IMG/VR virus record: IMGVR_UViG_3300049460_000157
Coordinates: 1-64,000 of that record
Direction: 5' to 3' (one strand)
Length of the DNA stretch: 64,000 bases
Origin: a virus
The notes beneath the pieces were generated by a model. The model saw only the letters and a program-made list of their open reading frames with translations. It did no database searches and was not told the origin of the DNA. The position numbers and the translations under genes are program-made. Shown here piece after piece: positions 30,994-46,878 of the stretch (positions within the stretch are counted from its first letter, which is position 1; every line of letters starts with the position of its first letter).

Positions 30994-31638
30994 ATGAAAA
31001 CAATCGTCTTCTCCTGCCTGAAGGGCGGGAGTGGCAAGACCACGCATTCCGCACATCTGGCCGTCGCTCTTGAGGCGATGGGCAAGGGTCCGGTCGTCAC
31101 CATGGACCTGGATCCGCAAGGCTCCTTCAGTGACTGGTGGAACGATCGCAAAGCCGACACACCGGTCTTCGCCATGGTCGAGGACATCAAGGCATTCCCG
31201 AAGAAACATGCAGCGCTGGTCGAGGCGGGGTTCGAGTATTGCGTGGTCGACACGCCGCCGCAGAATGCGGCCATCAACGAGGCTGCTGTCGAGGCCGCCG
31301 ACCTGGTGATCATCCCGGTCAAGCACTCCCCTCACGACATCCGGGCAGCGGTTACCACGGTTCAGCTCTGTGAGCGACTGAAGAAGAAGTTCTTCTTTCT
31401 GCTCAATGAGACCAACGGCAAGGGTGTGACGCTGGACGCCACACGTAACCTCGCCGCCATGGGACCGGTGATCCCGCATGCGGTGCCCAAGCTCAATGGC
31501 TACTGGCAGTCGATGATCGACGGCCGCACGTTCAGGGAGATGAACAAGGGCACCGGCGCCATCGTCGTGGAGCAGGTCGCCCAGTTTATCGTGGGCCAGT
31601 TCGAGAAGCCCGTAAAGAAGGAGAAAGCCTATGTCTAG
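30994..31638 (+). CDS. parA: ParA Walker-type partition ATPase (short, type Ib/ParF-like)
   Basis: 214 aa; deviant Walker A 'KGGSGKTT', 'DLDPQGS', 'VVDTPP', 'ADLVIIPV'; no N-terminal HTH. Confidence 0.95.
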   Translation: MKTIVFSCLKGGSGKTTHSAHLAVALEAMGKGPVVTMDLDPQGSFSDWWNDRKADTPVFAMVEDIKAFPKKHAALVEAGFEYCVVDTPPQNAAINEAAVEAADLVIIPVKHSPHDIRAAVTTVQLCERLKKKFFFLLNETNGKGVTLDATRNLAAMGPVIPHAVPKLNGYWQSMIDGRTFREMNKGTGAIVVEQVAQFIVGQFEKPVKKEKAYV

Positions 31639-31807: not shown

Positions 31808-32132
31808 GCCATCACTGGATGCGGTCATCACACGCAAGGGAGCAGCAGCGCCAGCCAGCCTTGAGGCCAAGGAACCAAGTAAGGAAGCAACCGGGGAGGT
31901 ATCCAAGGAGACTTCTAACCAAGGAGCCAAGGAAGAAAGGAAGCGTGCCTGGCATCAGCCGGGGCAGGAAGAGTGGAAGAAGACCAACTACGAGATGCCG
32001 TTGCGGGTGCAGACCAAGCTCAAGGAAATGAAGAACTGGGGATACATCCCGAATGTGTACAAGTTCGTGGCCGAAGCCGTCGAGAAGGAGATCGACAAGG
32101 TCATCGCCAAGGCCGAGAAGGAGGGCTTCTGA
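31800..32132 (+). CDS. Centromere-binding partner (ParG/ParB type Ib-like, probable ribbon-helix-helix)
   Basis: 110 aa; flexible N-terminus with 'RKGAA'; C-terminal 'WKKTNYEMP-LRVQTKLKEM...VYKFVAEAVEKEI' strand-helix-helix; downstream of parA. Confidence 0.7.
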   Translation: MSRPSLDAVITRKGAAAPASLEAKEPSKEATGEVSKETSNQGAKEERKRAWHQPGQEEWKKTNYEMPLRVQTKLKEMKNWGYIPNVYKFVAEAVEKEIDKVIAKAEKEGF

Positions 32133-32722
32133 TGACTGCCGTGAGTGAGGAAGAGGAACAGCAGTTTGAGCTGTTTCAGGCCGAGACGACCTGGTTCCAT
32201 ATCTTCAGATCCATGATGGACAGTGGCGACGCAGCCAGGATGGGCGGCAACGCCTTCATGATCTACTGCATCATCAAGGGCCACACGAACTTCAGGACGG
32301 GCAGGGCATTCCCCTCGATCGATACCATCATCGAGAAGTCCGGCCTGTCCAAGTCTCAGGTGCTGCGCGAGCTGTCCACCCTGGAGGACATGGGCTACAT
32401 CACCCGAGCCAGGGAAGGGCGCAAGAACGTCTACACGCTCAGGGAGAAGATCGGCATCAGCGATGACAAGGGCCGGCCCATAGCGGACGCTACGTGGGAT
32501 TACGTGCCCGATGGCGTGAGGACCGCGGTAGCGGAGCTCAAGCACGTCATGATGACCGGCGACTTCAAAGGCGCCAAGATCATCAACATCGAGAACATGA
32601 CGGTGCACTTCAACCAGGCCAACGACAGCTCGGTGCAGATCAACATCCAGCACCTGGTCGACAATATGGATAAGCTCACACCGGAGTTGAAGGAGATTCT
32701 TCTGAGGAATCTCACGAAATAG
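32132..32722 (+). CDS. Winged-HTH replication initiator (Rep-like)
   Basis: 196 aa; 'AFMIYCII...AFPSIDTIIEKSGLSKSQVLRELSTLEDMGYI....GRKNVYTL' initiator-type wHTH; immediately followed by iterons. Confidence 0.75.
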   Translation: MTAVSEEEEQQFELFQAETTWFHIFRSMMDSGDAARMGGNAFMIYCIIKGHTNFRTGRAFPSIDTIIEKSGLSKSQVLRELSTLEDMGYITRAREGRKNVYTLREKIGISDDKGRPIADATWDYVPDGVRTAVAELKHVMMTGDFKGAKIINIENMTVHFNQANDSSVQINIQHLVDNMDKLTPELKEILLRNLTK

Positions 32723-41457: not shown

Positions 41458-41982
41458 ATGGTGATCAATGGCAACGGGCTGCTCGCAGCAGCTCCGATTG
41501 TTGGCATGTTCCCTGGCAAGTTCAAGGCGCACGGCGTGAGCCACGGCCTGAGCGAAGCCGGGTATGACATCCGTATCAAGCAGGAGATCCAGTTCTGTTC
41601 ACTGGATCATGTCCGTCACCATGTCATCTCGGTCGAACGCAACGAGATTGGTCAGGTACAGCGCTACCACAAGAAGCCGGGACGCTTCATCCTGGCCAGT
41701 GCTCTGGAAGAGTTCGACGTGCCGTCCGACATGATCGGGATCGTGCACGACAAGTCGACCTGGGCACGGCAAGGCCTGTCGGTATTCAACACCGTCATCG
41801 AGAGCGGGTGGAAGGGTTACCTGACACTCGAGCTCGTCTACCACGGCAACGACAACCTGGTCATTCCGGCCGGCGCCGGCATTGCGCAGGTGATCTTTCA
41901 CAGGATCAGCGAGCATGCCACCTATGTCGGCAAGTACCAGGACCAGGCCAATGAGCCAGTCGCCGCAATCGCATCTGTGTGA
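41458..41982 (+). CDS. dcd: dCTP deaminase
   Basis: 'GYDIRI', 'DKSTWARQGL', 'VIESGWKGYLTLE', 'GKYQDQ'. Confidence 0.88.
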   Translation: MVINGNGLLAAAPIVGMFPGKFKAHGVSHGLSEAGYDIRIKQEIQFCSLDHVRHHVISVERNEIGQVQRYHKKPGRFILASALEEFDVPSDMIGIVHDKSTWARQGLSVFNTVIESGWKGYLTLELVYHGNDNLVIPAGAGIAQVIFHRISEHATYVGKYQDQANEPVAAIASV

Positions 41983-42190
41983 GTGCTGCGCCAAGCCCAA
42001 TGGCTGGATGTTCATGGAAAGTCGATACGCACACGCCTGTGGTGAGTGCGTAGACGACGGTCTGGCCGAAGAGTGCGAGTTCACGGGCGAGTACCGCCGC
42101 GTCGAGCGTTGCGTGGGATGTACGAAGCACGGCCCGGTCAATCACACGGGCGGCTATTACTGCGGCGGCGGTCCTCGCTGCTGCCCTTAA
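41951..42190 (+). CDS. Cys-rich small protein
   Basis: 79 aa with multiple CxxC motifs. Confidence 0.55.
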   Translation: MSQSPQSHLCECCAKPNGWMFMESRYAHACGECVDDGLAEECEFTGEYRRVERCVGCTKHGPVNHTGGYYCGGGPRCCP

Positions 42191-42228
42191 TTCGTGGTTT
42201 GTTTGGTTCCGCACATACAGTAAAACTG

Positions 42229-42257
42229 TTGACAGGTAAGGGATGTGCGGTAATAAT
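42229..42257 (+). promoter_or_regulatory. Host sigma70-like promoter
   Basis: TTGACA-17 bp-AATAAT. Confidence 0.55.
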
Positions 42258-42285
42258 CTAGACATAACTTGTAGGTCAAAAGTTG

Positions 42286-42482
42286 ATGGATAGCTGGCAG
42301 CGCTTTAGCTGACGCCGCTGGAGACAAGGCTGGGCCTCAACGCCGAAGGCAGAGGTGAATGCGCTGCGGCGCACATCAGTCCACTGTTAACGCGGAACAA
42401 ATCGGATTCGACCGAGTTGTTAGAGCGCTGCCAGATATCCATATCCCCTGAAGGGCGAAGATCGAAAGGTCTTCGCCCTTTT
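42286..42482 (+). ncRNA. Candidate structured ncRNA closed by 24-bp terminal stem, with its own terminator
   Basis: 42286-42309 pairs with 42419-42442 (2 G-U, 1 mismatch); internal hairpins; terminator aagggcgaagatc-gaaa-ggtcttcgccctttt. Confidence 0.7.
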
Positions 42483-42511
42483 CCATTAGTAAACGGAGAG
42501 AGATTTAAGAC

Positions 42512-43183
42512 ATGGCACCAACAATGAGTAGTGCTGAGCGCGATGTGCTTAATGAGCGTCGGCGGCAGATCAAAGAAGAAGGCTTCACCCATCGTGGTGA
42601 TGACCAGTACGACCCCGGCACGCTGGCGTCAGCTGCCACCTGCTATGGCATGTATGCCGCCGATATGCTGCACCCCCTGAGCCAGGGGGATGGATATGCA
42701 GCACTCGAAGGTGCGCCTCCGCTGAACTGGCCATGGCGTGCTGAGTGGTGGAAGCCGAAGACTTCACGCGATGCGATGGTCAAGGCCGCTGCCCTGCTGA
42801 TAGCTGAGATCGAGAAGTTCGACCGCAGCAACCCCGGCACCGCCAGGAACGACGACGGTGTAGCAACCTACGTTGAAGTGTCCAAGTCGACGAACGGAAA
42901 GGACGTGATCCCGGAGATGACCGATCCGCTCGGTGCGTACTGGGAGCAACCCGACCGTCAGATGATCTTCATCCGTGACGGCAAGGCGCTGCTCGATCCG
43001 CAGGACTTCAAGAAGCTGTCGAGCTACGACACATCGCTTCCGTCCGGTGTGTACCCCGGAAAGATGTGGAAGCGCACGAACGCCGGCGTCTCGTACCTCT
43101 GCTGGTTCGGTGAGGACAAGGGCGGCCACTGCTCGATCAACCACCTGCCGATCGAAGTTGCACAGCAATCAATGGCAGCCTGA
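42512..43183 (+). CDS. Hypothetical two-domain phage protein
   Basis: 'DVLNERRRQI..EG', 'WPW..EWWKP', 'KAAALLIAEIE' plus 'YWEQP...SLPSGVYPGKMWK'. Confidence 0.7.
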   Translation: MAPTMSSAERDVLNERRRQIKEEGFTHRGDDQYDPGTLASAATCYGMYAADMLHPLSQGDGYAALEGAPPLNWPWRAEWWKPKTSRDAMVKAAALLIAEIEKFDRSNPGTARNDDGVATYVEVSKSTNGKDVIPEMTDPLGAYWEQPDRQMIFIRDGKALLDPQDFKKLSSYDTSLPSGVYPGKMWKRTNAGVSYLCWFGEDKGGHCSINHLPIEVAQQSMAA

Positions 43184-43198
43184 ACCAAGGAGAACACG

Positions 43199-43447
43199 AT
43201 GCGCAAGGTCAGTCTTCATCTGGAAAAGGAGTTCGTCGAAAAGCTGCAGCACGAGCTGGGCCGGGAGTTCCTGAACGCCATCGCCTACCTGTCGCTGTGG
43301 TCCATGACCTACGACGATGTGGAGATCTACCGCGACGGCAAGGGCAACGACCTGATCGCCTACTACCGTCGCACGGAAGGCGGAGCCCAGTACACCATCG
43401 GCGCCATCTGGCGCGAGGGTGAGGGCAAGTACAGCTTCCACTCATAG
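43199..43447 (+). CDS. Hypothetical protein
   Basis: 82 aa, AAGGAG RBS. Confidence 0.65.
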   Translation: MRKVSLHLEKEFVEKLQHELGREFLNAIAYLSLWSMTYDDVEIYRDGKGNDLIAYYRRTEGGAQYTIGAIWREGEGKYSFHS

Positions 43448-43472
43448 GAGCCAGGCATGAAAGGACCGTGCG

Positions 43473-43805
43473 ATGTGTGATGAGTCGAAGCGGGGTAGTG
43501 GTCGCACTCACCGGATGCTGCTAGATGCCATCGCAGTGAAGTTGCATAGCCCGCACCAGGAGGTCTGGATCGTGGGCGAAAGCCAGAATCACTGCCGTGA
43601 AATGCACATGCACCTGGCACTGATGACACAAATGCATGAGCGGGAACACATTACGTTTACTACGCTGGATTCCCATTTGATGCGTGACTTCGACCTGAAG
43701 ACCATGCAGCCCCGGCTTGGCAACATTCGGGTGCTTTTCGACCATTACACCATCAGGCGGCATTTAAATGTGCTGCTGACCGAGCTAACGAGATACGACC
43801 CATGA
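43473..43805 (+). CDS. Hypothetical protein with degenerate P-loop-like start
   Basis: 'RGSGRT', 'VLFDH'. Confidence 0.55.
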   Translation: MCDESKRGSGRTHRMLLDAIAVKLHSPHQEVWIVGESQNHCREMHMHLALMTQMHEREHITFTTLDSHLMRDFDLKTMQPRLGNIRVLFDHYTIRRHLNVLLTELTRYDP

Positions 43806-46220: not shown

Positions 46221-46570
46221 CTACCTGTGAGCTGGTGCTGGAGCTTCTCGAGTTCGGGGAGATGACCGTGACCGAGTTGTTTGAGTCCCTTGGCTCCTTT
46301 CCCCGGTCGACCATCGGCAGTGCCGTGGAGAGACTGCATGAGCGCAACCTCATCCACGTCCACTGCTATGAGCGCACCCGTGTCGAGCCGGCACCCGTTT
46401 ACGCACTGGGCGCCGGCAGTGATGCCAGGAAGCCTCCGGCACGGACATCGACGCAGCGTTCCCGCAAGTACCGGGAGAAACACACCGCAGTGGTGCGGGC
46501 AAGACGGGCTGCACGGGATGACAGCAAGTTCCGCCATGTCATCCAGCTGTTGGCACACGTCACCGGTTAA
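46217..46570 (+). CDS. Winged-helix DNA-binding protein
   Basis: 'VLELLE.GEMTVTEL......RSTIGSAVERLHERNLI' wHTH with basic C-terminus. Confidence 0.65.
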   Translation: MTTCELVLELLEFGEMTVTELFESLGSFPRSTIGSAVERLHERNLIHVHCYERTRVEPAPVYALGAGSDARKPPARTSTQRSRKYREKHTAVVRARRAARDDSKFRHVIQLLAHVTG

Positions 46571-46573
46571 CGT

Positions 46574-46768
46574 TAGAATCAAGTTTGTGGGACGCTTCTG
46601 TAGATGCTGTCAACAGGAGCGGCGTGTTTAGGGGGGGTATGAAAATGCCTCCCCTCTTTTTCCCGGCTTGATAGAGATATCTTTGTAGTCTCTCAGCAGC
46701 TGGTCGGTTATCCCCCTCGGATGGCCAGCTGTTTCGGGGCAGGCACGGCAATGCCTGCCCCATTTTTT
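46574..46768 (+). ncRNA. Two tandem motif-hairpin-terminator units (candidate sRNAs)
   Basis: TAGA..TTTG motifs at 46574 and 46672, each followed by a hairpin and a GC-rich terminator with U-run. Confidence 0.55.
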
Positions 46769-46878
46769 CCAGTCTGTTTATCCAGGGGATCTGGGCGGCA
46801 AACCCGATCCGAAATTAGGATGCCGCCTGAAATTGGAAAGGGGTCCAGATCTCCGCGATAAGCTGATTAGGAGGACTA

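Follow-up and report, generated by a model that had tools for sequence, protein, structure and literature searches.

The locus raises the question of whether the strongly folded interval that lies between a promoter and a terminator in a block of phage middle genes is a gene for a non-coding RNA and, if so, what such an RNA might do. The window analysed here, a stretch of 64,000 nt, comes from a record that represents a complete virus genome (74,740 bp, with direct terminal repeats and a G+C content of approximately 58%). The phage is N4-like (Schitoviridae), since its DUF2201/VWA protein has matches in 572 phage records, with approximately 51% identity to homologues from the Escherichia coli N4-like G7C group, and since a split T7-like RNA polymerase gene is present. 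DNA near-identical to the window is found in rhizosphere and soil metagenomes, and the sole SNP in the matching contigs is a C>A change at 42277, in the leader of the RNA.

The RNA gene sits in a co-directional block (Table 1). The Cys-rich ORF upstream is kept in the RNA-bearing relatives and in one N4-like phage that lacks the RNA (L128); being clade-specific, it is uninformative as a clue to the RNA. The 223-aa protein encoded downstream is a fusion of two phage domains, both widespread. Its N-terminal region of approximately 110 aa matches phrog_6628 and others, while the C-terminal region of approximately 100 aa, which contains a GVYPGKMWKR motif, matches phrog_24427. Searches of Pfam and PHROGs gave no function for this protein. 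An AlphaFold model of a 155-aa homologue (pLDDT 79.5), in which the C-terminal domain is the confident part, had no fold match in the PDB.

Table 1. Features of the RNA locus and its neighbouring genes (positions are those of the window)
Feature	Position	Strand	Remarks
dCTP deaminase	41458-41982		Upstream of the RNA gene
Cys-rich (zinc-ribbon-like) ORF, 91 aa	41915-42190		Starts within the 3' end of the preceding gene (overlap with dCTP deaminase); phrog_19749
Sigma-70-type promoter	42229-42257	+	-35 TTGACA (42229-42234), 17-nt spacer, -10 AATAAT (42252-42257)
Short 5' leader	42258-42285	+	TAGACATAACTTG stretch; small hairpin 42265-42270/42280-42285 (fold)
P1, 5' strand (closing stem)	42286-42309	+	Fold, covariation
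J1/2, UGACG	42310-42314	+	Consensus UGMCG; invariant in the five-sequence alignment; also in L012
P2 arm	42315-42395	+	Invariant base CCG(C)...(G)CGG (42315-42318/42392-42395); branched distal part with two hairpins
J2/3	42396-42402	+	Conserved AACAA, then 1-2 variable nt; invariant columns, pattern matches
P3 hairpin, CGG-AUUCGA-CCG	42403-42414	+	Stem covaries (CGG/CCG, GGG/CCC)
J3/1, AGUU (4 nt)	42415-42418	+	Weakly conserved
P1, 3' strand (closing stem)	42419-42442	+	Fold, covariation
Intrinsic-terminator hairpin and TTTT	42451-42482	+	11-bp perfect arms (42451-42461/42470-42480)
223-aa protein	42512-43183		Downstream of the RNA gene

Folding of 42260-42482 gives a free energy of -102.7 kcal/mol, compared with -69.3 +/- 4.5 kcal/mol for shuffled sequences (z = -7.4), and none of 200 shuffles folds as well. 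The computed structure has a multibranched interior, as had been read from the letters in the original prediction, and a terminal hairpin. The arms of the enclosing inverted repeat (42286-42307/42421-42442) are 91% complementary and are the best matched of four long-range inverted repeats in the window. Read by hand over 24 positions, the closing stem contains 21 Watson-Crick pairs, two G-U pairs and one G-A mismatch, which agrees with the three deviations, two of them G-U compatible, that were described at the outset.

Homologues were sought with nhmmer and a motif scan, both around relatives of the flanking genes and, with the conserved 3' motif, across IMG/VR. Five further copies were found, four in N4-like phages (L003, L004, L009 and the truncated, partial L002) and one in an unrelated contig (L016), so that with a permuted member (L012) the family comprises five full sequences, one partial and one permuted. 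There is one copy of the RNA per carrier genome. In an alignment of the five full sequences (window, L009, L004, L003 and L016), both sides have changed in 14 of the 21 P1 pairs; these are compensatory changes of the kind for which covariation among homologues had been proposed as a check. Of the P1 cells, 94.6% are paired, versus 30-42% when the partner strand is slid, and the covariation score is reached by none of 500 shuffles. P1 is conserved in its pairing, not in its sequence. The alignment has seven G-U cells versus one A-C-type cell, which favours the + strand, and the RNA strand of L016 is the sense strand of the tRNA genes on either side of it; both observations bear out the earlier suggestion of selection at the RNA level on this strand. 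With the family model (R1), the window scores 167.6 bits, as one of the five training sequences, and L009, L004, L003 and L016 score 94-161 bits. The window has all the family elements, namely P1, UGMCG, CCG/CGG, AACAA and P3 with an AUUCGN loop. Because P1 covaries and the homologues show the G-U strand bias, with promoter and terminator conserved, the locus is very probably a real non-coding RNA gene of a new family.

The Rfam scan, another of the checks proposed originally, gave no relevant match. With Rfam 15 there were no matches in the whole window at the gathering threshold, and at E <= 10 the region 42100-42600 gave only Moco, on the terminator (19 bits, with a cut-off of 36), and one lncRNA. 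The L016 element is likewise unmatched in Rfam. The family therefore appears, from its absence in Rfam 15, to be previously uncatalogued. The RNA was not matched by blastn or megablast among 50,697 GenBank phage records, and is absent from the 77 next-nearest N4-like dCTP deaminase loci and from 35 other phage loci that encode the C-terminal domain of the downstream protein. Strict-motif matches in metagenome contigs (43) and in 185,579 species genomes (31) were rejected, as all are coding-like DNA without the stem and score below 30 bits with the model; a 29-bit model match in L060 is an unrelated 36-bp hairpin. This sparse distribution indicates a family that is rare, phage-restricted within the searches made, and horizontally mobile.

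The consensus of the family can be written as P1 - UGMCG - P2 (CCG...CGG) - AACAA(N1-2) - P3 (SGG-AUUCGN-CCS) - 4 nt - P1'. The conserved unit is a three-way junction with approximately 30 invariant nucleotides, among them five of the six bases of the P3 loop (AUUCG). The three pairs at the base of P2 are invariant and thus without covariation, and the inner helices are supported by few changes.

Two members show the core in other surroundings. In L016, the RNA begins 4 nt after one tRNA gene and ends 11 nt before a tRNA-Ile gene, which is followed by a permuted two-piece tmRNA (Rfam RF04321, 112 bits). The cluster as a whole (L016 4884-5803, minus strand) has the order tRNA, RNA, tRNA-Ile, circularly permuted tmRNA; its first tRNA has an odd anticodon loop, for which ARAGORN calls the 4-base anticodon gcgg. 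Judged by this arrangement, the L016 RNA would fill a tRNA slot and be released by tRNA processing. L012 is a 34.6-kb contig from a third type of phage. Here the 3' motif comes first, followed by a GGCC-UCU-GGCC mini-hairpin, equivalent to a reduced P1, and then by the 5' motif; the junction is closed by an 8-bp helix at the P2 position, and there is no terminal repeat. By the order of its parts, L012 is a circular permutation of the same junction core, and the chance of both motifs and the helix occurring together was roughly estimated at 1e-5. The core is therefore known from three kinds of genomic surroundings: it forms a gene of its own in the N4-like phages, is part of a tRNA/tmRNA array in L016 and occurs permuted within an operon spacer in L012. 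From the L016 and L012 members it follows that selection acts on the junction as a unit, and that the helix left open can be either P1 or P2.

The P2 arm has a different history. That of the window is approximately 95% identical in L009, is partly shared with L003, and is unrelated in L004 and L016. The corresponding identities of the dCTP deaminase to that of the window are 68% for L009 and 75% for L004. On this pattern of identities, P2 behaves as a module exchanged between close relatives. Its helices are compatible in the window, L009 and L003, with few one- or two-sided changes, and in the fold of the window the arm is almost wholly paired, with loops of just 3-4 nt. The definition of the core, the tRNA-array member, the permuted member and the modular P2 arm are new in this analysis.

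The promoter initially proposed (TTGACA, 17 nt, AATAAT) is present and agrees with the consensus at 11 of 12 positions. It is the sole sigma-70-like site within 41500-43500, and a promoter with a TTGACA -35 element occurs in all four N4-like copies (window, L003, L004 and L009). Transcription is expected to start near 42264, as predicted from the promoter. A motif at 42259 had also been pointed out. The motif, TAGACATAACTTG, is indeed there, but its two matches in the window, against 2.9 expected, show no enrichment; it is simply the beginning of the transcribed leader, common to the window and L003. TAGA-N6-TTG was similarly rejected as a phage promoter motif, as it is not enriched in the window. 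The terminator, also proposed before, has perfect arms, and its hairpin is homologous and covarying in L002, L003, L004 and L009. A simple terminator scan called the orthologous hairpin of L004 and not that of the window, because the U-tract of the latter is short. With P1 covariation, and with a host-type promoter and a terminator in all four N4-like copies, the proposal of a functional non-coding RNA that can be expressed without phage polymerases is well supported.

The statement that only an 8-codon ORF is present was incorrect, since an ATG ORF of 30 codons lies inside the RNA at 42359-42451. It is not conserved, and as the homologues either have a 1-nt indel within it, in the most conserved segment, or lack the ATG, it is not coding. 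A separate ORF is found in two of the relatives (L004 3959-4153 and L009 1633-1851), where the interval from the sigma-70 promoter to the RNA encodes a hydrophobic peptide of 43-46 aa. It begins MY..., has an N-terminal membrane-like helix, ends in ...EYG and is preceded by GGAGG; it is missing from the window and from L003. Its sequence suggests that it may be a small membrane peptide made together with the RNA.

Two more small units of promoter, hairpin and terminator lie at 46540-46770 of the window, the first with the promoter TTGGCA-17-TTAGAA(T); the TAGA that had been remarked on in these units is a piece of the -10 hexamer. The phage seems to carry several small RNA units driven by host promoters. 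A further side observation is that 42203-42249, upstream of and across the promoter of the RNA gene, is 73-74% complementary to 42370-42401 (the conserved 3' portion of P2 together with J2/3). An alternative pairing in upstream read-through transcripts may be conceivable, although chance is quite possible.

Elsewhere in the genome, a ParA-type ATPase (30994-31638) and an HTH_36 winged-helix protein (31973-32722) are encoded between two RNAPII subunit genes. ParA and a winged-helix, initiator-like gene occur in every complete carrier of the clade. Homologues of ParA with 55-74% identity are present in all three complete RNA-bearing relatives examined alongside the window (L175-L177), and ParA was not found in four of five complete N4-like relatives without the RNA. 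This co-occurrence of ParA/Rep and RNA is confounded by common ancestry, as the carriers are each other's closest relatives, and is not independent evidence. By its gene content, the ParA/HTH_36 clade is a possible group of N4-like phage-plasmids.

With somewhat better than even confidence, the locus is read here as a gene of its own, whose product is a stable and structured non-coding RNA that acts in trans and binds a host factor through its junction core. The near-consensus host sigma-70 promoter would drive a transcript of approximately 220 nt up to the intrinsic terminator, and the RNA would fold, at about 160-220 nt, by pairing of its 5' and 3' parts as P1. This helix could serve as a stalk for stability or processing, its 22-24 bp being sufficient for RNase III, while the RNA of L016 would be freed instead by processing of the flanking tRNAs. 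The junction core with its AUUCG loop would be the recognition surface for a host factor, with the RNA acting as a decoy, a sponge or an RNP partner. The host-factor step itself is put forward tentatively, at clearly less than even confidence. A host factor is suggested because no phage protein is common to the three carrier lineages (a comparison of their proteomes found none), and the junction is proposed as the surface because there is neither a phage partner nor an antisense target and because the conserved stretches left unpaired are very short. The target might be the host translation or tRNA-processing machinery, or defences that target tRNA, to which the tRNA/tmRNA neighbourhood of L016 is a weak pointer. 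Since the RNA depends on no polymerase other than that of the host, its synthesis could take place late in infection, or in a plasmid state if the ParA/Rep-bearing phages persist in that way.

Partners closer at hand were also considered. Complementarity of the RNA to four complete genomes does not exceed 11-13 nt at its longest, which is the chance level, and one recurrent 12-mer was rejected as a target since it falls in a coding region. The C-terminal domain of the downstream protein is encoded by each of the four N4-like genomes, and its divergence parallels that of P2. It was rejected as a cognate partner, given that the RNA is missing from the 35 other phage loci that encode the domain and that the domain has no recognisable fold. 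The genes downstream vary between carriers, which indicates that the RNA is an independent module. Two points sit uneasily with the host-factor reading. Circularly permuted forms of a small conserved junction are seen more typically among self-cleaving ribozymes than among protein decoys. In addition, the near-identity of P2 between the window and L009, despite only 68% identity of the deaminase, suggests that this arm may carry a sequence-specific function too, which the host-factor model leaves unexplained.

The main rival is therefore a new small self-cleaving or self-processing ribozyme, in which the junction would act as the catalyst and cut the transcript that contains it, leaving a purely structural role to the long P1 and P2 arms. 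Much of the architecture is compatible with this: the approximately 30 invariant nucleotides are concentrated in the junction strands and one hairpin loop, the flanking helices are free to vary in length and sequence, and no common protein partner was found. A circularly permuted version exists in L012, as it does for hammerhead (types I-III) and for twister (P1/P3/P5). An operon intergenic spacer and a position between phage tRNA genes are typical locations for such ribozymes. However, the Rfam models for hammerhead, twister, twister-sister, pistol, hatchet and HDV-like ribozymes have no match even at E <= 10, and no cleavage site can be proposed. The hammerhead consensus has CUGANGA and GAA(A) as its core strands, which CUGMCG (J1/2) and AACAA (J2/3) do not fit; the position of A6 is C in most members, and neither CUGANGA nor GAAA is present. 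With a strong promoter and a terminator of its own, the RNA has no evident need of self-cleavage, and the ribozyme is considered unlikely. A related and equally unlikely reading treats the permutable junction as a new functional RNA module moving between unrelated phages, which would be a self-cleaving ribozyme of a new class or else an aptamer of high affinity, and which the N4-like phages would transcribe from a host promoter as a counter-measure consisting of RNA alone; the ligand of such an aptamer would be a host translation or tRNA-processing factor or a tRNA-targeting defence protein. Next after the ribozyme comes an RNA that, like P1 c4 or P4 CI, regulates by base pairing or confers immunity, for which the core would be a scaffold for processing or stability and short loops of the exchangeable P2 arm would pair with phage or host mRNAs, and which may act during plasmid persistence of a ParA/Rep-bearing phage. 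The modularity of P2 (near-identical in the window and L009, unrelated in L004), a host-type promoter from which the RNA can be made without phage polymerases, and the ParA and initiator-like genes of all complete carriers of the clade are in keeping with it. Against it stand the pairing of nearly all of P2, the lack of a match to Rfam C4, and the chance level of complementarity to the four genomes; short two-site pairings of the c4 type are statistically undetectable. Such a regulator is regarded as quite unlikely.

It is very unlikely that the element, instead of being an RNA gene in its own right, acts in cis on the surrounding operon, as a processive antiterminator, a 5'-UTR regulator of the downstream gene or a 3'-UTR stabiliser. 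The location inside a co-directional gene block would suit such an element, as would the conservation of the 5' UTR beyond the terminator in the window, L003 and L009 and the start of the downstream gene 30 nt past the terminator, a distance that means that this gene needs terminator read-through. The downstream genes differ among the carriers, though, and tRNA genes lie on both sides of the L016 copy; the 35 loci with the downstream domain do without the RNA. A terminator belonging to the RNA is present in all four phages, as is a promoter, which in two of them lies 29-32 nt upstream of it. The original prediction had been reminded of retron msr-msd RNAs, and had considered a decoy; an orphan template or decoy for the reverse transcriptase of a host retron is highly improbable. 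The long terminal inverted repeat does resemble a1/a2, and an invariant unpaired G, part of UGMCG, directly follows the 5' strand of the stem. Yet the order of the modules is reversed, with the variable P2 arm 5' and the conserved P3 hairpin 3', the L012 core has no terminal repeat at all, and the L016 copy sits in a tRNA/tmRNA array, so that neither the likeness nor the decoy idea has stood up; of the other roles named at the outset, antitoxin and immunity RNA stay candidate functions. The absence of a visible reverse transcriptase was confirmed by searching the whole genome (74,740 bp) with PF00078, which gave no matches while positive controls were detected. As no genuine copy was found in the 185,579 species genomes (all 31 pattern matches being the low-scoring ones described above), the RNA is not in use by any retron family of the bacterial genomes covered by the search. 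Function at the level of DNA, as a cruciform, a protein-binding site, an origin or a partition site, is just as improbable. The inverted repeat is the best matched in the window and the genome has a plasmid-like par/rep module, but 10 kb separate this module from the RNA, the G-U pairs would turn into A-C mismatches on the opposite strand or in a cruciform arm, promoter and terminator bracket the RNA in all four phages, and one member lies within a tRNA array.

Stable RNAs of phages beyond tRNAs are poorly understood, as with species 1 and 2 of T4 and the sRNAs of LUZ7. The compact and well-defined core of this family, seen in three settings, makes mutational, pull-down and self-cleavage tests easy. 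If the core is catalytic or binds a host factor, it would represent a new phage tool at the RNA level. Genes driven by host promoters, such as that for the RNA, could be expressed outside lytic growth, in view of the ParA and winged-helix genes; if the RNA acts during plasmid persistence, it would bear on the carrier state of the supposedly strictly lytic N4-like group.

Among known systems, retron msr-msd RNAs are likewise multi-hairpin RNAs closed by a terminal inverted repeat, with a conserved unpaired G adjoining it; the present family differs in having no reverse transcriptase, in the reversed order of its modules and in its permuted and tRNA-array members. Hammerhead and twister ribozymes share with it a small conserved junction, free helices, permuted forms and a frequent location in phage intergenic regions, but their core sequences are different and the Rfam searches did not link them to the family. 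The c4 RNA of P1/P7 and the CI RNA of P4 are phage-plasmid or satellite RNAs derived from longer transcripts, in which a conserved scaffold carries variable specificity loops, as here; the window RNA is more than twice their size, has no match to C4 in Rfam, and no complementary target was found for it. Y RNAs and YrlA, which is known in some phages, also combine a branched module with a long stem in which the 5' and 3' ends pair. There is no Rfam match to them, the window RNA is without tRNA-like D or T arms, and, since the sequence of the stem is not conserved, P1 contains no Ro-binding site; no TROVE/Ro gene was found in the genome of the window phage. Resemblance to tmRNA was considered because of GGAUUCGAC, which resembles the tmRNA D-loop motif. 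This candidate was rejected, as its GG pairs with CC to form a covarying hairpin. ARAGORN found no tRNA or tmRNA genes in the window, L003, L004 or L009, and no SmpB is encoded in the window phage.

The N4-like Pseudomonas phage LUZ7 is reported to produce abundant late sRNAs (sRNA1-3) from the spacer between orf69 and orf70; they are shorter than 250 nt, non-coding, and made from the middle-gene region at the late, host RNA polymerase-dependent stage (PMC9163698). This spacer (L193 17930-18010, record 42929-43009) contains a 12-bp closing stem, GGAGUGCUCUGG/CCAGAGCACUCC, with two small hairpins. The architecture, a closing stem around hairpins, is similar to that of the family, whereas the genomic position is another one, the UGMCG, AACAA and AUUCG core is absent, and the family model has no match in the LUZ7 genome. 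In T4, rnaC and rnaD (species 1 and 2, in the tRNA cluster) are likewise stable structured RNAs encoded by the phage, of 120-140 nt, and the T4 record names no function for them, calling them simply small stable RNAs. By reading, they have no sequence likeness to the family motifs, and a family-model search that included the T4 locus gave no T4 match among the matches listed, the weakest of which had 9.0 bits (E 9.9). At their 3' ends the T4 RNAs resemble tRNAs (T-arm and CCA), which the window RNA does not, and the latter has its own promoter and terminator. A further likeness is with L016, whose RNA, set in a tRNA array, would be released by tRNA processing.
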